Origin: an uncultured Pseudomonadales bacterium
GTDB lineage: Bacteria; Patescibacteriota; Microgenomatia; UBA1400; PJMF01
DNA: 64,000 bases
Direction: 5' to 3'
Assembly (NCBI GenBank): GCA_964511345.1
Contig: CAZEEV010000001.1
Coordinates: 72,089 to 136,088, forward strand
The position numbers and the translations under genes were made by a program. Positions 6,075 to 58,062 of this stretch are shown piece after piece. Under the pieces are notes generated by a model. It ran no database searches. It was given only the letters and a program-made list of their open reading frames with translations, and was not told the origin of the DNA. The number at the start of each line of letters is the position of its first letter. Within the stretch, counting starts at the first letter, position 1.

Positions 6075-6938
6075 CTAATTGATATTAAAAGCCCTTAGTG
6101 AGTTTTGATAAATCTCTTCTAGATTAGCATTGAAATTATTTTTCAGATAGGCAGCCGTTTCGGCAATCATATAAGGTTCACAAATTTGTCCCCGATATGG
6201 TTCAGGAGCAAGATAAGGTGAATCTGTTTCCAAGAGAATTTTTTTAGGATCAGCTGTTTGTATCAAAGAGAAAATATCTCTAATATAATCTGCTTTTTTG
6301 AAAGTGATATTCCCATCGAAACCAAAATAGCTATTTTTCATAGTTAGAGCTTCTTTAATATAATCCAATGGTCCAGAAACGCAGTGAAAAATCAGAGAAT
6401 TTTTGAATTGCCAAAATTGTTCAATGAGTTTTAGAGTTTCAAAATAAGCTGCTTCTCCCTGATCTCTAACGTGCAGTACTAAGGGTAGATTTAATTGATT
6501 AGCAAGTTCAATTTGTGCGATAAAGAGTTTTTGTTGTTTTTCTTTGATTTGTTTTATCTCAATGTTGTTTTTAGTTGTTAAATAAAAATGATCCAAACCT
6601 GTCTCACCAATGGCAACAACTTTGTTATTTTGTGCTAGTTCTTTTAATTCGATGACGGCTTGCTCGATTCCATTAACATTATTGATTTCTTCTGGATGAA
6701 TGCCAATCACTGCATAAAGATTTTCATCTTGCTTAGCAATTTCAATAGCTTTTTGACTATGCGCTAAACTTGGTCCCACAATAATACTTTTTTTAATGCC
6801 TGTTTCTTGAGCTTTTTGCCAATGATCCTGCCAGTTTTGAGTGAGAATTGGATCTTGGTTATGGATTTTAAAGTGAGAAACTTGACCGCTATAAAGTGGT
6901 TCTAAATTATAATGGCAATGAGTATCAATAATTGGCAT
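6075..6938 (-). CDS. tatD: TatD-family metal-dependent hydrolase/DNase
   Basis: N-terminus MPIIDTHCHY with TatD His/Glu ligand pattern (GIHPEE, ETGLD, HVRD, LETDSPYLAP). Confidence 0.85.
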   Translation of the reverse strand: MPIIDTHCHYNLEPLYSGQVSHFKIHNQDPILTQNWQDHWQKAQETGIKKSIIVGPSLAHSQKAIEIAKQDENLYAVIGIHPEEINNVNGIEQAVIELKELAQNNKVVAIGETGLDHFYLTTKNNIEIKQIKEKQQKLFIAQIELANQLNLPLVLHVRDQGEAAYFETLKLIEQFWQFKNSLIFHCVSGPLDYIKEALTMKNSYFGFDGNITFKKADYIRDIFSLIQTADPKKILLETDSPYLAPEPYRGQICEPYMIAETAAYLKNNFNANLEEIYQNSLRAFNIN

Positions 6939-24471: not shown

Positions 24472-26826
24472 TTAAACTGAAGCATTAAACAGTCGATTAG
24501 AGACTTCACTAAGCTTAATTTGCAAAGGTGGACCAGCCGGATCAATCGGCTCATGTTTGAAACCAATTAGAGCAATATTTTCTGGATTATCATCTTTTTC
24601 ATTGGTTAAGAATGTTGAATTGCCAGTTCCTAACATAATTTCTTTAATTTGCGCCTTAATGGTTTGAACTCTAGACTCATTCCAATTTTCTGGATTAGTT
24701 TTATCTTCAAGTCTTTTGAGAGAGGATAAAATAATACGCCTAAGTGTTCTATCTTTAAGATCGTCTAGATATTTTAGATTCTGTTGAGCTAAAGAAAAAT
24801 GCAAGTTAAGTTCTAGCAATGAATAGCCGAACTCTTCTTTTACCTCTAAATTAATAAATGAGTTTGGATCGTCCCAATCTTTGGGTTGGTATGAATATGG
24901 TAAGACGTAAAGATGAGAGCTATTAGTAGCTTCTTTTCGTTGGTGATCTTCTGTTTGTCTGGTTTCTGTTGCTTGATTTTCGCTAGTTTGCTTGGATACA
25001 ACAGCGGAAGTTTGGTAAAGATCGCGATTTTTAATTGCTAATAAATATGAAAAAACTACTCTTTCTACCCAAGCTCTTTCAGCAGGAGCTAATTTAAATA
25101 GTGCTGGAGTTTCCATCTGTTCATTAATTTCAAAAACAAACGCTCTTTTGCTTAGTTGCAGAGAAACTTCTAAATTATGAGGACTAGTAGTACGTCTAAA
25201 AGTAAGTTGCTTTAAGCCAATTTGAGCCAATAATTTGTCTTGGCCTTGAGACTGATCTAATTTGACACTAATGCCTCTTTTAGAAATAGGGAACATTCCA
25301 CCTCTAGCTTGATCTTTAAGTTCTGTTAATGGCGTGGTCTCATCCAAATCTAACTCAGGACGAAGAAAAGTCACAATGGCTGCCATTTCAGCTATTTCTA
25401 AAGGTTTAGTAGATGTATTAAGTAAATGAGGAAGATTAGCCTTAAGTTCTAAAATAGAAGCTGGGTCTAGTTTATCTAAATCGTTACGAGTAATATTTCC
25501 TCTCCAAGTAAGAAGACTATTTTCTTGATTCTGGGCAAATTGGGAGGGAATGACAAAGCCACCAAAATCGCCTTCTTTTTTTAACAAATCCAATTCTTTT
25601 TCCATGGCAAATTTAATTAACTCATTTGCCAATGGATCTGAGGCATAATTTTCTATTTTTTCACAAAATACTGGAAGATTATCTGTTTTTTTGGCCATTT
25701 CTATTCTAGAGTTAAATCCTGCGAATCTGAGAATTTCATCAAACTTTCGATCATCGCTAAGAGTATTGCTACTTTGCTCAAAGATTTTTTCTAAAATAGC
25801 CACTTTAATGATTGATTTTTTGACATTAGCCTGTAACTCAGATTGGCTAGTTTCTTCATTTGGATTCACACTGATGATTTCAACGACTTCTCCCAAATCA
25901 TTAGTTCTGCCGATCATATCCTCTGCCACATATGCTCCTAAGGAAGTAAAAGTTTCTAGCACATACTGAGCCTGTTGACGTACTTGTAAATCGGGGTGGT
26001 GAATATGAGTGAACTTAATTACGTCAAATAAATCACAATAATCTTCTATTGCCTCTCCTTGCTGATCCTTTTTTGGTTTATCAATACTTAAGTCTTCAAA
26101 TATTCTTAGGACCACTAATTGTTTTAAACTGTTTCTGCATTGTAGTGCTACTAAAGAAAGTTGATGAAGATTGTTAATAATTTTTTTAAATGGAAGTTGA
26201 TCGATTTTTGGAATTGATTCTGGACTTTTTGATTGCTCGTGTCTTCTTTTTGAATTTGATTCAGAAGTTAAGCCATTTGCTTGCTGTTCAATTGCTCTTC
26301 TAGTTCCTCTTATTCTAGATGGAATTATTTTAGACTCTTCTAACAATGGAAAAATATCTTCACTCGTATTAAATGATTTTAGTTTGTTACCATTCTCTTG
26401 GACAAACTGTTTCAAAGTCGGGCTGAAAATTTTAAAATCAGTCATTCCCATGTTCATTGCCAAAGTTAAGGCATTTTTATATTTATCATTTAATTTAGGA
26501 TTAGCACCTAAACCATTAATTAGAAAAGAGAATTCTTCCTGATTGCACCAGTAGTGTTCTTTTTTATCGGAGAGAAGTTCTGTGATTTTATCTAGGATTA
26601 ATTCTTCAAATTCTGCTAAAAGAAGATCAGAGCGACTTGCGACTTCTGTTTTTATGAGTCCCAACTCTTTGAGATTTTGAGCTTGTTGAATTTGTTGATA
26701 AATTTCTGATTGCTCTATTTTACTCATAATATTATCTTGTCTTTTTTCAAGAAGAAAATTTGTGGTGACCCTAAGGTTTCTACATCCGAACCAAATTATA
26801 ACAGATCTAGTTGATCTAATGAACAC
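24472..26826 (-). CDS. Large orphan protein (784 aa as listed; probable true start at 26727, MSKIEQ...). It has an ankyrin-like segment, no P-loop and no known catalytic motif
   Basis: Long uninterrupted ORF. LGANPKLNDKYKNALTLAMNMG resembles one ankyrin repeat. A TATAAT -10 box lies inside the listed N-terminal 33 codons. Confidence 0.55.
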   Translation of the reverse strand: MFIRSTRSVIIWFGCRNLRVTTNFLLEKRQDNIMSKIEQSEIYQQIQQAQNLKELGLIKTEVASRSDLLLAEFEELILDKITELLSDKKEHYWCNQEEFSFLINGLGANPKLNDKYKNALTLAMNMGMTDFKIFSPTLKQFVQENGNKLKSFNTSEDIFPLLEESKIIPSRIRGTRRAIEQQANGLTSESNSKRRHEQSKSPESIPKIDQLPFKKIINNLHQLSLVALQCRNSLKQLVVLRIFEDLSIDKPKKDQQGEAIEDYCDLFDVIKFTHIHHPDLQVRQQAQYVLETFTSLGAYVAEDMIGRTNDLGEVVEIISVNPNEETSQSELQANVKKSIIKVAILEKIFEQSSNTLSDDRKFDEILRFAGFNSRIEMAKKTDNLPVFCEKIENYASDPLANELIKFAMEKELDLLKKEGDFGGFVIPSQFAQNQENSLLTWRGNITRNDLDKLDPASILELKANLPHLLNTSTKPLEIAEMAAIVTFLRPELDLDETTPLTELKDQARGGMFPISKRGISVKLDQSQGQDKLLAQIGLKQLTFRRTTSPHNLEVSLQLSKRAFVFEINEQMETPALFKLAPAERAWVERVVFSYLLAIKNRDLYQTSAVVSKQTSENQATETRQTEDHQRKEATNSSHLYVLPYSYQPKDWDDPNSFINLEVKEEFGYSLLELNLHFSLAQQNLKYLDDLKDRTLRRIILSSLKRLEDKTNPENWNESRVQTIKAQIKEIMLGTGNSTFLTNEKDDNPENIALIGFKHEPIDPAGPPLQIKLSEVSNRLFNASV

Positions 26827-27041
26827 ATTTTTTCCAGATGTAAAAAAGATTCAAAACTATGCCTGGTCCTAGTACTCCTTAATGAGAATTGAACCAGAAA
26901 GAAAAAACAGCGACGTGTAATATTTTACCTATTAACGTGCAATCGTTGCACAAGCGTATGCGGTAAAGAACAGTCTTCCTCAATAGTTTTATAAGGTAAA
27001 TAAGTGTGAGTAAAGGTTGCAATGCTTTACACGTGAGGTCT

Positions 27042-28079
27042 TTATGGTCGTCGCGGAGGTCTTTGTGGTTGTTGCGGAGGTACTCCTCCTTGAAACATCT
27101 GGAAATGTTTGCCCCAAGATACACCAGTTTTACTTTCGTAAAGTTTTATAAATGGACTGATGCTAAAAAACCCGTTTAATAAAATATAGGCTTCCCATAG
27201 TAAATCCTTTAAACTACCAGAAGCAACAGATACTTTTAAATCTGTTAAATCTGCAATTTTTTCTGGCGTTAGTGGTCTCGAGTGTATTTTATGAGAGTTA
27301 TAGTCGGAAAAGTAGGAAACCATCTTTTTTAATTTTTGACCATTCATTCTTTGACCAGCAAACATGTATTTTTTTAACCATGTAGATACCAATTCTTTTG
27401 AAAGTTTTTCAGAGTCATAGCATAATTCGAATAAGTCTAGTGAATATTGTTCAATCAGAGGTAGATATGCTGGTAGTACTTTGGCGCCATCCCTCTTGAT
27501 TATGCTTTTTGCATGATCAAATCCATTTAAAATTGATTTTGCAGGGACAAAGCGCACAAGACCATTTTTTGCAGGGATCCCTACTTGAGGATCAACAGGA
27601 CCTAAGGTTGCACTTGGATGTAACACAATATTATTTCCTGATAAAGCTAGCATTGTTGCTGCGGAATATGCTGAGTGAGGAATAAGAAAGTCAACTTGTT
27701 GAAATCTGCTTCTAAGTATTTCGACTATTCTTTCGGTTGCATCTGGTCTACCGCCAGGACTATGTATTAGCACGTCAACACTAGTTATTTCTGACGGTAT
27801 TGAGTTGACTAAGTCAGTAAACCCATCAACGTCTGACAAGTCTATTTGATTTGGAGCCCCATCAGGAACATTTTCAATGAACTTAGTTGCATATACTAAC
27901 AATGGTTTCTCTCTCAATGCTTCAATTTCAGAATAACAAAGCTTCCTTAAATCAAATAGCGTGGACGCTTGAATTCCTTGCGGTTGTTGTAAAAGTGGGG
28001 CGATGTAATCGTGCCAATCTTGAGTAGTTTTAAAAATCCTGCGTTGTTGTTGAGAGGATGGCATATCTATTAATCTCAA
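27042..28079 (-). CDS. ClpP-superfamily serine protease (SDH/S49-like) with proline-rich C-terminal tail
   Basis: VLIHSPGGRPDATERIV oxyanion motif, catalytic Ser context HSAYSAATMLALSG, LGPVDPQVG, tail QGGVPPQQPQRPPRRP. Confidence 0.65.
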   Translation of the reverse strand: MRLIDMPSSQQQRRIFKTTQDWHDYIAPLLQQPQGIQASTLFDLRKLCYSEIEALREKPLLVYATKFIENVPDGAPNQIDLSDVDGFTDLVNSIPSEITSVDVLIHSPGGRPDATERIVEILRSRFQQVDFLIPHSAYSAATMLALSGNNIVLHPSATLGPVDPQVGIPAKNGLVRFVPAKSILNGFDHAKSIIKRDGAKVLPAYLPLIEQYSLDLFELCYDSEKLSKELVSTWLKKYMFAGQRMNGQKLKKMVSYFSDYNSHKIHSRPLTPEKIADLTDLKVSVASGSLKDLLWEAYILLNGFFSISPFIKLYESKTGVSWGKHFQMFQGGVPPQQPQRPPRRP

Positions 28080-28263
28080 AGTCTAGTGTAGAACTAACTT
28101 CTGATGAGTTTGCATAGAAGCCTCGTCCATAAGCAATTTCTGCTTCACTAAGAATTGCCTTTGCCTTTTTATACTTTTTATAATATGTAAAAGATTCTGG
28201 GATTTGTTTTTGAATTTTTTTAGTTGCAATCTTACTTACGATCGTTTTTTTAGTAGTTGCCAT
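28030..28263 (-). CDS. 77-aa basic small protein, first gene of the protease operon (possible regulator/partner)
   Basis: ORF overlaps the protease start by about 50 nt; K-rich; no recognised motif. Confidence 0.4.
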   Translation of the reverse strand: MATTKKTIVSKIATKKIQKQIPESFTYYKKYKKAKAILSEAEIAYGRGFYANSSEVSSTLDFEINRYAILSTTTQDF

Positions 28264-28599
28264 ATAAGTAAATCATATCACCTACGATTTAATTTTCTAG
28301 TAATAATAAACCCAGTGTCTGGTTCAAAAGTTTCTAGTGTTTAATTTGTCGATAGCTTAATTAAGGAGAATTCGTTAATACAGACATGTGATCTGTGGGG
28401 CTATTTTACAAGTAATTTATCCAAGTAGTAGTAAATCATCTAAGTATAAAAGAGAATTCAGTAAATATGTGTTGGATATATTAAAAATCAAAAATATAAA
28501 TGAAGCTACTAAAACAAAAACACTTTATTCATATAAGAAACCGAAATTTTGTAGAGTCGTTATGTAGTTGGCGTGAAGTTACAAAAAAATCAGATACAT

Positions 28600-28607
28600 T
28601 GTATAAT
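28600..28607 (+). promoter_or_regulatory. Extended -10 (TGTATAAT) candidate promoter for the OLD-family gene
   Basis: TGnTATAAT about 49 nt upstream of the ATG at 28656, in a 392-nt AT-rich divergent intergenic region. Confidence 0.35.
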
Positions 28608-28655
28608 TAACCTTCATAATGAAAAGCTGAGGATTGCATATTATATGGAAACTAT

Positions 28656-30608
28656 ATGTATATTAAAAAAGTATCGATAAAAAACTTTAAAAGTTTCAAA
28701 ACTGAGACAGAAGTTGTTTTACAAGATGGATTAAATCTAATAGTTGGTCCTAATTCTGGAGGAAAAAGCAATTTGCTTGAATTAATCCAAGCATTCTTCA
28801 ATGATGTTTTTTTTATGGATGCTAGCTTTGAACAAAACAATGAAAGCAATCCAAATAGATTGGTGGTAATAAAACCTTTTAAAGCTGTTCAACAACGTTC
28901 AGATGGCAATCAACTACAAAGAGTTTTTGATTCGCACGTAAATGGATCTGGTGAAAGCGTTCTTAAAGTTGTTTTAGCTATTACTAAAGATGATATAGAT
29001 AATATAAATGAATTTAAAAAAACAATAGATGTTTTGGAAGATTTTGAGAATAAAGAAATTGGCTCAAATTTTATAAGCCAAGTAAAAAGAGGTTTTAATC
29101 TATCTACCAAATATGAAAGCTATGTAGATTCAGATTTACCAATCATTTTTACTCTTAGTAATGATGCTCAAGTAGATAGCTCAGTAAAAACAAATGATTT
29201 AGAGGGATTATTTCATTTTTTACGTTGGAGTAGAGTTATATTTAAGTTAGCCTGGTTTTATAAACTTTTTAGACCAGATTATGAAGTAAAGTTGAGACCG
29301 TATTTTTACTATATCTCACCCGCAAGGGATTTTTCCCTTTCAGAGAATGAACATATTATTGATTTAGCTCAAGTGAATGGAAACAGTGCAAATCAATTCA
29401 CTCAGAGAAACATAAATCAGGAAAGTAGGATAAGTAATCTTGGTGTTTTAATAAGAATATTGGTTGAGAATTATTATTACGCTGGAAAGAAAAATAATCC
29501 AAGCAATGATGAGTTTAGAAAAATGTTGAATGATTATTTAAAAATGGATTTTTCAATAGCAACGCATGGAATAGAAACGCAAAATAAATACAAACTTATT
29601 TTCAGAAAAATAAGTAGTTCGTCTCTAAAACTAAGTTCTGGAGAAAGGGAATTTTTTAATTTATTGTCAACTGTATTTGCGCAGAACATACGTTCAGGAA
29701 TATTGATTATTGATGAGCCAGAAATACACTTACATCCTAAATGGCAACATATTTTTCTTGATCTTTTAAAGAGTATATCGGTAATTAGAAAAATACAGAT
29801 TATTTGTGTAACACATTCTGCATCATTTATCAGAAGAGATTTGCTTACAGGTATCATCAGAGTGTCAATGATAAATGATGAGAGTCATGTTTATCTTCCA
29901 AATAAAAGTCAAACGCAAAATACCACGATAAAAGATCAGTTTATGCTTGTTACGGCGTCGAACAATGAACGTGTTTTTTTTGCTGACAAGATAGTACTTG
30001 TTGAAGGTTATGCTGATAGAATCATTTTTCAAGCCATTTTAGATAAAGTTTATTCACAGGATAAACCAATAATTGAAATTGTTGATGTTTTTGGAAAATG
30101 TAATTTTGAAAGGTATAAAAACTTTTTATCGATTTGGGATATATCTACAAAAGTTATTGCTGACCTGGATTATTTAGCAATGGTGGATAGTGAAGCAAAA
30201 ACAAAAATTTTTTCAGTTGAAGAAAAGAAGCTACAGAAAAAATTGGAAAAAAATAATAGCGAAGATGGAAAAAGTTTATTAAAGATCTTATCTCATATTT
30301 GCGACAGTGAAGTGGACGAAGTATGTGAAATCGATAAAAATCAGTTGTGTAGTTTATATAAATATCTTAATACACGTCATTCATCTTTGGTTGTAACTGG
30401 CAGTCAAACAGATATAGATTATTATGTTGAAAAAAATAAAAAAGATAATTTGTATTTTCTTAAAAAGGGAGAAATTGAAGATTACTTTCCAGGTATAGGA
30501 AAGTTTGATATCGATTCAGCTATTGATATTGGTGAGAAAATAAAATCAGGTGAGATTGCGATAGATAAAGAGTTAGCAAAATTAATAAAAGAAGTTGCTC
30601 ACAGCTAA
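28656..30608 (+). CDS. OLD-family ATP-dependent endonuclease (ABC-type ATPase + C-terminal TOPRIM), class-1 (stand-alone) architecture
   Basis: Walker A GPNSGGKSN, ABC signature-like LSSGEREF, Walker B ILIIDEPEIHLHP, H-loop CVTHS. TOPRIM glutamate VLVEGYADRI and DxD as IADLDYL. Confidence 0.8.
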   Translation: MYIKKVSIKNFKSFKTETEVVLQDGLNLIVGPNSGGKSNLLELIQAFFNDVFFMDASFEQNNESNPNRLVVIKPFKAVQQRSDGNQLQRVFDSHVNGSGESVLKVVLAITKDDIDNINEFKKTIDVLEDFENKEIGSNFISQVKRGFNLSTKYESYVDSDLPIIFTLSNDAQVDSSVKTNDLEGLFHFLRWSRVIFKLAWFYKLFRPDYEVKLRPYFYYISPARDFSLSENEHIIDLAQVNGNSANQFTQRNINQESRISNLGVLIRILVENYYYAGKKNNPSNDEFRKMLNDYLKMDFSIATHGIETQNKYKLIFRKISSSSLKLSSGEREFFNLLSTVFAQNIRSGILIIDEPEIHLHPKWQHIFLDLLKSISVIRKIQIICVTHSASFIRRDLLTGIIRVSMINDESHVYLPNKSQTQNTTIKDQFMLVTASNNERVFFADKIVLVEGYADRIIFQAILDKVYSQDKPIIEIVDVFGKCNFERYKNFLSIWDISTKVIADLDYLAMVDSEAKTKIFSVEEKKLQKKLEKNNSEDGKSLLKILSHICDSEVDEVCEIDKNQLCSLYKYLNTRHSSLVVTGSQTDIDYYVEKNKKDNLYFLKKGEIEDYFPGIGKFDIDSAIDIGEKIKSGEIAIDKELAKLIKEVAHS

Positions 30609-30611
30609 TTT

Positions 30612-30941
30612 TTATAGATTCTTATATCTTTTAGGATACCTCTTTTTAAGATTAGAATTAGCTGCTTTTATTATATCTTTTCCCCAATCATCATTCTTTA
30701 GTTTGTTAGCCTTATTTGCATACAGTAGGCTTATGGGTTTATTCCATACTGATATTAGCCAAGCAATTAATATTGCCAATATTCCTACTCCACCGATAAT
30801 GATGCCAAAAATTCCGCCATAAAACATGGTAAGAACTAGGATTCCAGCAATGAGAATAGAAAGACCTCTCATTCCTTCCTTTTGAGCGACTGCTCCGCCT
30901 ATAAGCATGCTTAAAATCATCAATACAAGTATTTCAATCAT
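30612..30941 (-). CDS. 109-aa two-TM small membrane protein converging on the OLD gene (candidate membrane effector or immunity partner)
   Basis: Two Gly-rich TM helices (GILVLTMFYGGIFGIIIGGVGILAILIAWLI) and basic C-terminus; stop 3 nt from the OLD stop. Confidence 0.45.
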   Translation of the reverse strand: MIEILVLMILSMLIGGAVAQKEGMRGLSILIAGILVLTMFYGGIFGIIIGGVGILAILIAWLISVWNKPISLLYANKANKLKNDDWGKDIIKAANSNLKKRYPKRYKNL

Positions 30942-30992
30942 ATGTAAATGTATACTACCAGTAAGTCGACCAACAGTAAAGATTTTTAGAAA

Positions 30993-31016
30993 CTGTAACC
31001 ATGGTAAAAGTTACAG
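30993..31016. promoter_or_regulatory. Inverted repeat CTGTAAC-N10-GTTACAG spanning the HTH gene start codon (candidate autoregulatory operator)
   Basis: Perfect 7-bp arms at 30993-30999 and 31010-31016 bracketing the ATG at 31001. Confidence 0.4.
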
Positions 31017-31216
31017 CAATCTCAATTAAAATAGGCAAAAACATTAAAAAGATCAGAGTAAATAAAGATATGACTCAGGAAGCATTAGCTTTTGATGCTG
31101 GAGTGAACCGAGCTTACATTGGATATATAGAACGTGGTGAAAGAAATCCTTCAACTGAAACATTATCTAAAATATCAAAAGCATTAAAAGTTTCTTTAGG
31201 TGATCTTCTAAATTAA
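31001..31216 (+). CDS. XRE-family (Cro/cI-type) helix-turn-helix transcriptional regulator
   Basis: 71 aa with IRVNKDMTQEALAFDAGVNRAYIGYIERGERNPSTETLSKISKAL, the classic HTH_3 pattern. Confidence 0.75.
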   Translation: MVKVTAISIKIGKNIKKIRVNKDMTQEALAFDAGVNRAYIGYIERGERNPSTETLSKISKALKVSLGDLLN

Positions 31217-31501
31217 AGCAAAAAATCTCAAAATAACGTGTTTTTATGCATAATTGCACATAAAACGCTGTGATTTTTGTATTGCCAATAAAACCAAGCA
31301 AGGCTAATAAGATAGTTTCCAGACACGGTAAAAAGGGAGCTATAGTGTTGGTTGTTTTCCTATTGCCTTCACATAGTTTTGGTCCCTAAAATTTTATGTA
31401 ATATAAATTACGGGTAAGATTTAAATTTTTTTCAGATGACGGGAAAGCAAATCTAAGTGAATAGAATCTTCTAAGGTTCTATTTAGATTGGCTACCGTTC
31501 C

Positions 31502-31648
31502 ATGACAATCAAAGAGGCAAGGAAAATATTAGGGAGAAAAGCAAAAGATTTGTCTGATGAAGAACTTCAACAAGATATTGATGCGGCAGAATTATTAAAG
31601 GAAATTTTTTTTAGTTTATATCTTTCCAAAAGAAAATCTATTCAGTAG
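31502..31648 (+). CDS. Unannotated 48-aa ORF upstream of the recombinase (candidate excisionase/RDF-like small protein)
   Basis: Translation MTIKEARKILGRKAKDLSDEELQQDIDAAELLKEIFFSLYLSKRKSIQ. Below the ORF-track size cutoff; ends 30 nt before the recombinase ATG; no SD. Confidence 0.25.
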   Translation: MTIKEARKILGRKAKDLSDEELQQDIDAAELLKEIFFSLYLSKRKSIQ

Positions 31649-31657
31649 CCATTCAAT

Positions 31658-31674
31658 GTGCCATAATTCGGCAC
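31658..31674. promoter_or_regulatory. Hairpin/operator GTGCC-ataattc-GGCAC immediately upstream of the recombinase start
   Basis: Perfect 5-bp inverted repeat with 7-nt spacer, 4 nt before the ATG at 31678. Confidence 0.35.
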
Positions 31675-31677
31675 TAT

Positions 31678-33207
31678 ATGGAAAAAAGAGCAGTTATATA
31701 CATTCGCGTATCAGATCCCTCTCAAATAGAAAATAACAGCTTGGAGACACAAGAAAAAGAATGTCGAAAAGCTGCTGCATCTCAGGGTTACGATGTTATT
31801 AGAATTTTTAGAGAAGAAGGTAGGTCTGCCAAGCATATATATACAAGATTAGAGCTAAGGAACCTATTTGACTTTTGTTCAATCAAGAAACATGGAATTA
31901 GTGCAGTTTTTGTTTATAAAACTGACAGGTTTAGTAGAAATGTTGAAGAAGGATTGGCTGCCATTTCAAGGTTAGCAAAGCTAGACATTGAAGTTATTTC
32001 AGTTGTAGAAGGTTATGAAAACAGCGCAATGGGTCGTGCTCTAAGAGTAATGATTATGGCAATGGATCAATTAGATAATGAGCTAAAGGGAGAAAGAGTG
32101 AAGGAAAATATGTTGGCTTGTTTCAGGAAAGGATTGTGGGTTTTCAAATGTCCAGTTGGTTACAAACGAAAGTATCATACAAAAGAGGAGAATAAGGGTA
32201 TACCTCCAATAAAAGACCCCAATTTAGCACCAATCATTACAAAGATGTTCCAAAACGCAGCCACTGGTATTTACAGTAAAAGCCAGCTTGCGCGCATTAT
32301 GAACTTGGAGGGTTTCAGTGAGCATTACAGGGTAGAGGCTGATCACAAAATTGTTGATGGTATCCTAGAGAAAACTTTCTACCACGGACTCATGTATGCT
32401 CAAAAATGGGATTTATATTCTCAGGGTAAACATGAGCCGCTTATTGATGAGACAACTTGGAAAAAAGCCTATCATTATCTCATCTTAAAAAAGAAAAACT
32501 ACCAATATCATGATGAAGAACTATTTCCATTAAAAGGTACGCTTAAGTGTGAAATATGTGGGCATCCAATGACAACTTCCCCCTCAAGGGGTAATGGGGG
32601 GGTAGTGACTTACTATGAATGTCGCAATAAGGGATGTAAAAAGGTTCGTATTAATGCCAATAGTGCGCACCAGCAATTTAATGATTTACTTAGTAGAATA
32701 CAGCCGACTAATAGAGTCATTACGCTTTTTCAAAAGATGGTATTTGTTGAGTGGGATAAAGTGATTAATAAGACTCGAAAACAAGCAGATATCATTGATG
32801 ATCGTATTTATGCTTTCAAGCAAGAATTGAAGAGTATCCGCAAAGCCAAAGACGAAGGTTTGTATAGCATTGAGCAGGCTAAAGAAGAAGCTGAAAAAGT
32901 GAGTCAAGAAATTACAATATTGGAAGTAGAGCGTTCTGAAATAAAGTTTGAACAATACAATACAGAAATAATTAAAGATTTTACTGAAAGATTTCTGCGC
33001 GATCTTAATTTGTTATGGGAAAAGTTAGATCTACCTAAAAAACAGGCATTGCTTCAGAAGATATTCCTTAATACTTTGTTTGTATCAGAAGACAAAAAAA
33101 TCCGAACAAGTGAAATATCTCCATCCTTCCAACTAATTGAGGCTCTTGGTGCCTCTGATGGTGAAAATGTGACCCCATGGGGAATCGAACCCCAGTTATC
33201 GGGATGA
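31678..33207 (+). CDS. Large serine recombinase (resolvase N-domain + recombinase domain + zinc ribbon + coiled coil)
   Basis: Catalytic motif VIYIRVSDPSQ, TDRFSRN, zinc ribbon CEICGHPM...YYECRNKGCKK. Last about 13 codons overlap the tRNA-Glu 3' half on the opposite strand. Confidence 0.85.
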   Translation: MEKRAVIYIRVSDPSQIENNSLETQEKECRKAAASQGYDVIRIFREEGRSAKHIYTRLELRNLFDFCSIKKHGISAVFVYKTDRFSRNVEEGLAAISRLAKLDIEVISVVEGYENSAMGRALRVMIMAMDQLDNELKGERVKENMLACFRKGLWVFKCPVGYKRKYHTKEENKGIPPIKDPNLAPIITKMFQNAATGIYSKSQLARIMNLEGFSEHYRVEADHKIVDGILEKTFYHGLMYAQKWDLYSQGKHEPLIDETTWKKAYHYLILKKKNYQYHDEELFPLKGTLKCEICGHPMTTSPSRGNGGVVTYYECRNKGCKKVRINANSAHQQFNDLLSRIQPTNRVITLFQKMVFVEWDKVINKTRKQADIIDDRIYAFKQELKSIRKAKDEGLYSIEQAKEEAEKVSQEITILEVERSEIKFEQYNTEIIKDFTERFLRDLNLLWEKLDLPKKQALLQKIFLNTLFVSEDKKIRTSEISPSFQLIEALGASDGENVTPWGIEPQLSG

Positions 33208-33241
33208 GAACCCGATGTCCTAACCGCTAGACGATAGGGCC
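33170..33241 (-). tRNA. tRNA-Glu (anticodon CUC), 72 nt, no encoded CCA
   Basis: Manual fold of GGCCCTA-TC-GTCT-AGCGGTTA-GGAC-A-TCGGG-TTCTCAT-CCCGA-TAAC-TGGGG-TTCGATT-CCCCA-TGGGGTC-A. 7-bp acceptor has two G-U pairs; T-loop TTCGATT; architecture parallels E. coli tRNA-Glu. Confidence 0.8.
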
Positions 33242-57864: not shown

Positions 57865-58062
57865 TTAGTAATGAATTGTAAGAATTGCCACTTGCAATGA
57901 TTTTTCATTTTTGTTAGTTTGATTGTTGCTGTGGAATGTAGTGAAAATCTACGACTGTGCCGCAACGGTGATTCTCATTAAGAGATTAGTCCGATCTTCA
58001 GCAAAAAAGAAATCTTGACGAGCATCGAAGTAAATTGAAAAGTGATATTTTTTAGAATCGAT

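Follow-up and report, generated by a model that had tools for sequence, protein, structure and literature searches.

SDH proteinases (PF01972; NF047768) adopt the ClpP/crotonase fold and carry an HSPGG loop, and the family owes its name to the order of its residues Ser, Asp and His. The NfeD/STOPP protease 1510-N (PDB 6m4b, 3viv) likewise has the ClpP fold and shares an operon with its dedicated partner or substrate, a stomatin. Other small proteins are paired with proteases in CapP/CapH and ImmA/ImmR, and protease effectors of the Lit type stand alongside the type II toxin-antitoxin and two-gene abortive infection (Abi) systems such as HicAB and AbiE. We are not aware of a report in which a ClpP-fold SDH protease acts as a toxin or Abi effector. 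In the present study we analysed a stretch of 64,000 nucleotides (nt) of contig CAZEEV010000001.1, referred to as the window, in which a small open reading frame (ORF) of 77 amino acids (aa) precedes the gene of an SDH family protease. The first-pass annotation had proposed that this protease feeds into a 784-aa protein encoded downstream, as its substrate or effector, and that the adjacent OLD nuclease belongs to the same system. This three-gene idea is refuted; what remains is a widespread, easily testable, uncharacterised two-gene cassette of small ORF and protease, which is carried at one end of an integrated island. We are highly confident of the genomic anatomy of island and cassette. 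The whole explanation, which adds to this anatomy a cassette function resembling toxin-antitoxin or Abi systems, is a reasonable candidate that falls a little short of probable, and the mechanism that we suggest for it from the genes is tentative.

The cassette of the window comprises the following features:

28272..28299, minus strand: cassette promoter from the promoter scan, with TAGAAA, a 16-nt spacer and a TG-extended TATGAT
28263..28030, minus strand: small partner ORF, 77 aa, isoelectric point (pI) 9.6, without a transmembrane (TM) segment
28079..27042, minus strand: protease ORF in its longest form, TTG start, 345 aa
27042..28064, minus strand: protease gene in the form used here (P0006), ATG at 28064, 340 aa; start according to the gene callers and the homologues

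As previously noted, the 77-aa ORF is basic and lies ahead of the protease gene, whose start it overlaps by 35 nt with the ATG or by 50 nt with the TTG. For comparison we used 18 close cassettes, defined as loci encoding protease homologues at 59-74% identity. All 18 carry a homologous ORF of 73-100 aa ahead of the protease, with an overlap of 26 or 35 nt in each of them, and the pairing of both genes is therefore far beyond chance. In its non-overlapping part the small ORF shows a ratio of non-synonymous to synonymous substitutions (dN/dS) of 0.05-0.35, which indicates purifying selection. The 77-aa ORF is accordingly a real gene, conserved as the partner of the protease, as had been supposed. 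The small proteins have the motifs K[VI]ASKKVLKQN, YK.T.D.I.R, ALG[RK]K and STLNFEI..YG..STT in common and a median pI of 9.8 among the close cassettes; in the window the C-terminal end is rich in Ser and Thr (S/T-rich) and reads ..LSTTTQDF. Searches of the small protein against Pfam, NCBIfam, PADLOC, PHROG and the PDB gave no match, and a word-indexed homologue search returned the query alone; its homologues were taken from the fetched cassette loci. A programmed frameshift that would fuse both ORFs was rejected, as the protease lies in the +1 frame and no fused homologue was present among the 120 listed (297-362 aa).

Both genes appear to be expressed from one promoter. The -10 element of the window ends 8 nt ahead of the ATG of the small ORF, and an equivalent, sigma-70-like promoter (TTGATT-17-TGnTATAAT) is kept in the alignment of 12 other cassettes. 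This promoter occupies a conserved stretch of about 45 bases upstream, and as 8-10 nt separate the end of its -10 element from the ATG, a nearly leaderless mRNA is predicted. No RNA family was detected by Rfam in or around the cassette.

The close cassettes are found in Patescibacteria (Gribaldobacteria, Paceibacterota, Sungbacteria, Saccharibacteria), Omnitrophica, Bdellovibrionales, Gammaproteobacteria and Lentimicrobiaceae (Bacteroidota), and close homologues of the protease number more than 1000. Between different lineages of Patescibacteria the nucleotide identity of the cassette reaches 88-91%. The similarity between cassettes starts 1-49 nt upstream of the ATG of the small ORF and extends, for the majority of pairs, to within ~12 nt of the stop codon of the protease. 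Moreover, the cassette may be present or absent among close relatives. As shown by these alignments, the cassette and nothing beyond it behaves as a horizontally spreading unit that occurs in several bacterial phyla.

The neighbourhoods of the cassettes vary. HsdM/HsdS or other restriction-modification methylases, including an Eco57I-like methylase, were identified nearby at five loci (L009, L013, L016, L020, L030), and genes for PIN, AbiEii, HicB, Fic and DUF3368 proteins are further neighbours. Transposases and integrases lie close to the cassettes of L007 and L018, and a tRNA gene is located at most ~220 nt upstream in L005, L014, L028 and L029. Plain housekeeping neighbours were found in L011, L014, L017 and L027-L029. 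The company of restriction-modification, toxin-antitoxin and mobile-element genes is thus frequent, not universal. Several cassettes directly follow or overlap hsdS/hsdM of type I operons (L016, 2024-5529; L020, 1243-2801; L009, 876-8035). Type I restriction-modification operons are known to host embedded accessory and defence genes. Besides, two tandem tRNA-Val(CAC) genes (6387-6596) stand immediately upstream of the L028 cassette, which is itself flanked by two aminoacyl-tRNA synthetase genes, and this tRNA duplication may be an integration footprint.

Taken together, the cassette shares several traits with type II toxin-antitoxin and two-gene Abi systems: adjacent, co-directional and overlapping genes with the small one first, a shared promoter of their own, similarity limited to the unit, and empty sites in relatives. 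The pair moves as a unit as these systems do, and it is met in the same restriction-modification, toxin-antitoxin, integrase, tRNA and phage accessory settings. Unlike them, the present pair has no known toxin or antitoxin domain and no PADLOC match.

In the window, the cassette forms one end of an island of 6.4 kilobases (kb) at ~26772-33168, between a 751-aa gene and tRNA-Glu(CTC). The features of this region are:

26765..26771, no strand: left attachment junction (attL), where the host flank meets GTGACCC (plus strand), which is the displaced 3' end of tRNA-Glu; from an alignment of both island ends with the empty sites L025 and L026
26772..27041, minus strand: non-coding island end downstream of the protease, finishing in the tRNA-T-arm-like GGTTCGGATGTAGAAACCTTAGG
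28656..30608, plus strand: stand-alone OLD-family ATPase-TOPRIM nuclease (Pfam AAA_15, AAA_21, OLD-like_TOPRIM; PADLOC Old, E 1.7e-37)
30612-30941, minus strand: 109-aa predicted membrane protein with no family match, island cargo between the OLD and XRE genes
31001-31216, plus strand: XRE-type helix-turn-helix (HTH) regulator, island cargo
31678..33207, plus strand: large serine recombinase (integrase; Resolvase, Recombinase, Zn_ribbon_recom; phrog_95 integrase, E 2.3e-67)
33169..33241, minus strand: tRNA-Glu(CTC), target and right boundary (attR), detected by ARAGORN and Rfam
26826..24472, minus strand: large ORF in its longest form, GTG start, 784 aa
24472..26727, minus strand: large gene in its annotated form (P0001), ATG at 26727, 751 aa; homologues of 736-751 aa

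The island boundaries were set by alignment with the empty sites L025 and L026, in which the start codon of the large gene is located ~35 nt from the 3' end of tRNA-Glu(CTC). The host flank of the window matches these sites up to GTGACCC and then breaks, and the intact tRNA follows 6.4 kb away; therefore, ~26772-33168 is an insertion. It was integrated into the 3' end of tRNA-Glu(CTC) by the large serine recombinase that it encodes. Long direct repeats were not found at the island ends, as expected for an integrase of the serine type. The last 39 nt of the integrase ORF (33169-33207) overlap the 3' part of tRNA-Glu, so that the C-terminus of the integrase differs between the integrated and the excised state.

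These boundaries bear directly on the proposal that the protease activates or processes the 784-aa protein in a three-gene, protease-gated system tied to OLD. The large ORF does lie on the same strand, 215-314 nt from the protease, and its product is an orphan without a known domain. The gap of 215 nt given earlier is correct for the longest ORF; the real gene has 751 aa and the gap is 314 nt, since its annotated start is the ATG at 26727. This gap includes the attL junction, which separates the protease from the large gene. The 784-aa reading from the GTG start runs through attL, and the conserved start is again the ATG at 26727. In L002, L025 and L026, homologues of 736-748 aa are present at the same chromosomal position without any protease, those of L025 and L026 (738 and 748 aa) adjoining tRNA-Glu. 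The backbone that they share with the window has Ham1, DeoC and a gene for a small membrane protein to one side of the large gene, and to the other the genes for a 254-aa protein, a 209-aa protein, CAP and an NTP-transferase. The identity of the large protein to these three homologues is 58-63%, within the 31-94% range of its neighbours.

Relatives of the large protein are few: five were found by word-indexed search and 17 by exhaustive phmmer among 1.84 billion representatives, versus more than 1000 for the protease. The family has a conserved core at about residues 440-680. No identification was obtained for the large protein in Pfam, PADLOC, PHROG and NCBIfam, and its family alignment had no match in Pfam or the PDB. 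Judged by gene context, the 751-aa gene is a lineage-restricted host backbone gene outside the island and not a partner of the protease. Neither an OLD gene nor a large conserved downstream gene was detected at the 17 other cassette loci. Co-occurrence, which the first-pass annotation had put forward as a check, thus holds for the pair of small ORF and protease (18/18 loci) and fails for the large gene and OLD (0/17 others). Hence, a three-gene system is extremely improbable, and there is no ground for grouping the 784-aa orphan into any system with the protease or OLD.

The adjacency of OLD, which had been taken as a functional link, likewise did not stand up. The OLD gene is divergent from the cassette, with which it shares an intergenic region of 392 nt, and it stands alone between the 109-aa membrane protein and the cassette, without a GajB or AriB-type partner. 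By the comparison of loci, OLD and the cassette do no more than share an island as cargo.

In its integrase, XRE and OLD cargo at a tRNA 3' end and its empty site in relatives, the island resembles small tRNA-targeting defence islands with serine integrases. Here the distal cassette is uncharacterised, which sets the island apart from them. A further difference is provided by the more distant relative L005 (7505-9330), where tRNA-Glu(CTC) is directly followed by the cassette and the same island end, without integrase or OLD. This locus would be either a decayed island or a minimal one of 1.75 kb. Because L005 has only the cassette and the same end, a small family of tRNA-Glu islands has the cassette as constant cargo at its distal end. 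At the same tRNA-Glu, L002 (6866-10000) carries different cargo, namely Metallophos, DUF6602 and a 410-aa protein without a Pfam match, and no integrase was called there.

The DNA that follows the cassette in L005 and L006 shares ~80% identity with the island end at 26772-27041 (about 280 nt), an identity above that of the coding region (about 68%). This similarity breaks off precisely at ..GGTTCGGATG..CCTTAGGGTCAC (..GGGTCAC), which resembles the T-arm and acceptor end of the tRNA. The non-coding DNA holds a long imperfect hairpin, and the fold of the conserved 277-nt tail is no more than mildly stable (z = -2.2). This stretch is probably an attachment (att) arm of the island; an RNA element is the alternative reading, which we do not favour.

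The protease itself had been assigned to the SDH/ClpP superfamily by motif, and the HSPGG and AYSAAT motifs and the Pro/Gln-rich (P/Q-rich) tail are all present. Numbered according to the 340-aa form, its features are:

27750-27764, minus strand: HSPGG, residues 101-105, oxyanion loop
27654-27671, minus strand: AYSAAT, residues 132-137, serine context
27663-27665, minus strand: Ser134, invariant in the alignments
27591-27593, minus strand: Asp158, invariant, in GPxDPQ
27282-27284, minus strand: His261, invariant, in HSR
27045-27098, minus strand: P/Q-rich tail MFQGGVPPQQPQRPPRRP, residues 323-340, disordered in the AlphaFold2 model; the protease tail ends in ..VPPQQPQRPPRRP

The protease matched SDH_protease (PF01972) with E 9.1e-15 and 54.9 bits at a gathering score of 31.3, in a partial alignment of residues 91-182 to profile positions 85-175 of 286. 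In PHROG it matched phrog_11747 (E 2.9e-44), a family without assigned function. We aligned 61 close homologues and three distant ones of 27-30% identity, namely gp31 of Gordonia phage BeeGee, a Porphyromonas phage protein and a Klebsiella prophage-like protein. Invariant in close and distant sequences are D97, H101-x-P103-G104-G105, S134, G155-P156-x-D158-P159-Q160, W229, H261-x-R263, K307 and E310; S102 of the HSPGG loop is conserved in at least 90% of the aligned sequences. Lack of the catalytic triad on alignment had been named as an observation that would speak against a protease, and S134, D158 and H261 turned out to be invariant. AlphaFold2 with the homologue alignment predicted a ClpP fold with a predicted local distance difference test score (pLDDT) of 80.9 and a predicted template modelling score of 0.79, the H261 loop (260-263) being of low confidence (pLDDT <50). 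In Foldseek searches the best solved structures were 1510-N (E 8e-7, PDB) and then ClpP, with probability 1.00, and the best viral matches in BFVD were giant-virus proteins annotated as 'serine dehydrogenase proteinase'. The maximum hydropathy of 1.37 indicates no TM segment, and no signal peptide was found in the protease. It is therefore expected to be cytoplasmic, as it lacks a hydrophobic segment.

Profile, predicted fold and residue order all place the protease in the SDH family, and from PF01972, the invariant S134/D158/H261/HSPGG residues, the ClpP fold and the missing TM segment it is predicted to be an active enzyme. The equivalog cut-off of NF047768 (Clp_like_SDH) was not reached (66.9 vs 250 bits), which makes it a divergent SDH subfamily and not an equivalog. 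It differs from other SDH proteinases in its own N-terminal helices, its helical C-terminal half and P/Q-rich tail, and in being always paired with a small upstream gene. An identity as ClpP (S14) was rejected, since GPxDPQ puts Asp where ClpP has His and no Clp_protease match was obtained in Pfam; no unfoldase gene lies next to the protease at the loci examined. S49 SppA (TIGR00706, 18.7 vs 155 bits) and NfeD/STOPP (PF25145, 23.5 vs 40 bits; no TM segment, no SPFH gene nearby) were rejected as well.

The structural match to 1510-N, the stomatin-specific NfeD protease, raises the question of ordinary proteolysis. The enzyme could be a protease of the NfeD/SppA kind that serves housekeeping or quality control, has a small protein as its dedicated substrate or chaperone, and plays no part in genetic conflict. 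High sequence conservation and the location of about a third of the cassettes among housekeeping genes would fit such a role. Nevertheless, the present locus has neither the stomatin/SPFH gene nor the membrane anchor of the NfeD/STOPP system, nor a signal peptide, and its conserved residues point to a Ser-Asp-His set instead of the Ser-Lys dyad of 1510-N. Moreover, a patchy distribution with absence from close relatives, clear horizontal transfer as a two-gene unit, and carriage by an integrative island and by phages are not what would be expected of a housekeeping enzyme, and we consider this explanation very unlikely.

Distant relatives of the cassette were found in viruses. A viral scan with the single protease sequence found nothing, and an alignment-based scan detected protease relatives on 146 viral contigs. 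At 22 of 25 testable near-full-length viral loci, the protease has on its strand an ORF of 50-112 aa, the end of which falls within a range of 27 nt upstream to 68 nt downstream of the start of the protease. Such an ORF precedes 35% of the control genes in the same loci (p about 2e-5; conservative count 20/26), and as some loci are near-duplicates, there are fewer independent observations than counted. In Gordonia phage BeeGee (MW601219, 26498-26674; L022, 3747-3923) an unannotated 58-aa ORF ends in ..YSTSATR and its stop codon abuts the ATG of gp31. The pair of small ORF and protease is located beside HicAB in Porphyromonas phages, and a lambdoid nin region of Klebsiella provides the third annotated record with this arrangement. 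Ser and Thr make up 24% of the 20 C-terminal residues of the distant small ORFs, compared to 13% of the residues that precede them (p = 0.004). By gene arrangement, distant versions of the cassette are thus shown to be present in accessory regions of phages and prophages.

Phage carriage also bears on whether the pair is the remnant of a head module, with a ClpP-like prohead protease and a scaffold-like small protein. Weak matches to head-maturation profiles exist (phrog_1684, phrog_53, NF045542), the last with 30.3 bits at a cut-off of 120 bits, and such an identity was rejected. The best PHROG family, phrog_11747, is one without a function, the BeeGee gene follows the tail genes outside the head module, and neither the island nor any of the 18 cellular loci contains a capsid, portal or terminase gene. 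The first-pass annotation had already seen no such genes nearby and judged a head-maturation role unlikely; in agreement with this, the island measures 6.4 kb only and is flanked by housekeeping genes. A head-module remnant is hardly conceivable here.

For the two-gene cassette alone, a role in a conflict system is still plausible. We propose that translation begins with the small protein, which is made along with the protease and is dedicated to it as a partner. It would restrain the protease or be processed by it; the most likely role is that of an inhibitor or pseudo-substrate whose S/T-rich C-terminal end keeps the protease occupied. If the small protein were then lost or displaced upon phage infection, stress or loss of the element, the freed protease could cleave cellular or phage proteins. 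As an outcome, the element would be stabilised or the infection aborted. That the pair represents a widespread two-gene class of toxin-antitoxin or Abi systems, in which a ClpP-fold Ser-Asp-His protease effector is held by a leaderless small basic protein via its S/T-rich end, is in this specific form doubtful. If the cassette were a conflict module, it would extend the so far small set of protease effectors known from bacterial immunity and addiction systems by a ClpP-fold (SDH) protease. It would also provide the first function for a large, highly conserved, unannotated subfamily that is common in Patescibacteria (candidate phyla radiation, CPR) and present in phages. With a size of 1.25 kb and its own promoter, the cassette should be easy to test in a heterologous host.

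Several results weigh against a toxin-antitoxin-like or Abi-like function. Profile searches revealed no antitoxin or DNA-binding domain, including HTH and ribbon-helix-helix (RHH) domains, in the small protein, and AlphaFold2 on the single sequence gave a low-confidence three-helix model (pLDDT 66.5) that was not used. PADLOC-DB v2.0.0 contains no model for the 77-aa protein or the protease, the latter yielding only a chance-level match to AbiEii (E 0.018), and a published account of such a small-protein/SDH-protease pair was not found. Protein conservation of 59-74% across phyla is above what is usual for fast-evolving defence genes, and roughly one third of the cassettes are located amid housekeeping genes without defence neighbours. 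Comparison of the small-protein profile with four distant small ORFs by hhalign showed no homology (probability <3%), and the generalisation to phages is therefore based on position, size and composition.

The basic character of the small protein would also agree with the reverse polarity, in which the harm would come from this protein, e.g. by nucleic-acid binding, and the protease would act as antidote by degrading it continuously. The catalytic residues of the protease are under strict selection, and the S/T-rich C-terminal end could serve as a degradation tag. However, the small first gene is the neutraliser in most two-gene modules of such a layout, and a stable enzyme as antidote to a small toxin makes poor addiction logic. 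We regard the reverse polarity as unlikely and prefer the protease as the effector.

Another possibility is a regulatory switch, in which a small repressor is cleaved by the protease on a signal and controls the island or neighbours such as OLD. CapP/CapH and ImmA/ImmR offer a model for this, as a small basic protein is paired with a protease, in the window beside a defence gene (OLD), and protease-repressor pairs next to defence genes have precedents. The divergent intergenic region shared with OLD would suit such a control. Those systems, however, combine metallopeptidases with HTH repressors, and the small protein of the cassette has no detectable HTH or RHH domain. In addition, each locus has different neighbours, and several cassettes are flanked by housekeeping genes only. 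Since the mobile unit ends at two genes, there is no constant regulated target, which makes a regulatory switch quite unlikely in comparison with a protease effector held by its small partner.

Elsewhere in the window, Rfam identified an AdoCbl (cobalamin) riboswitch at 57906-58050 on the plus strand, with 50.4 bits at a gathering score of 50 bits.

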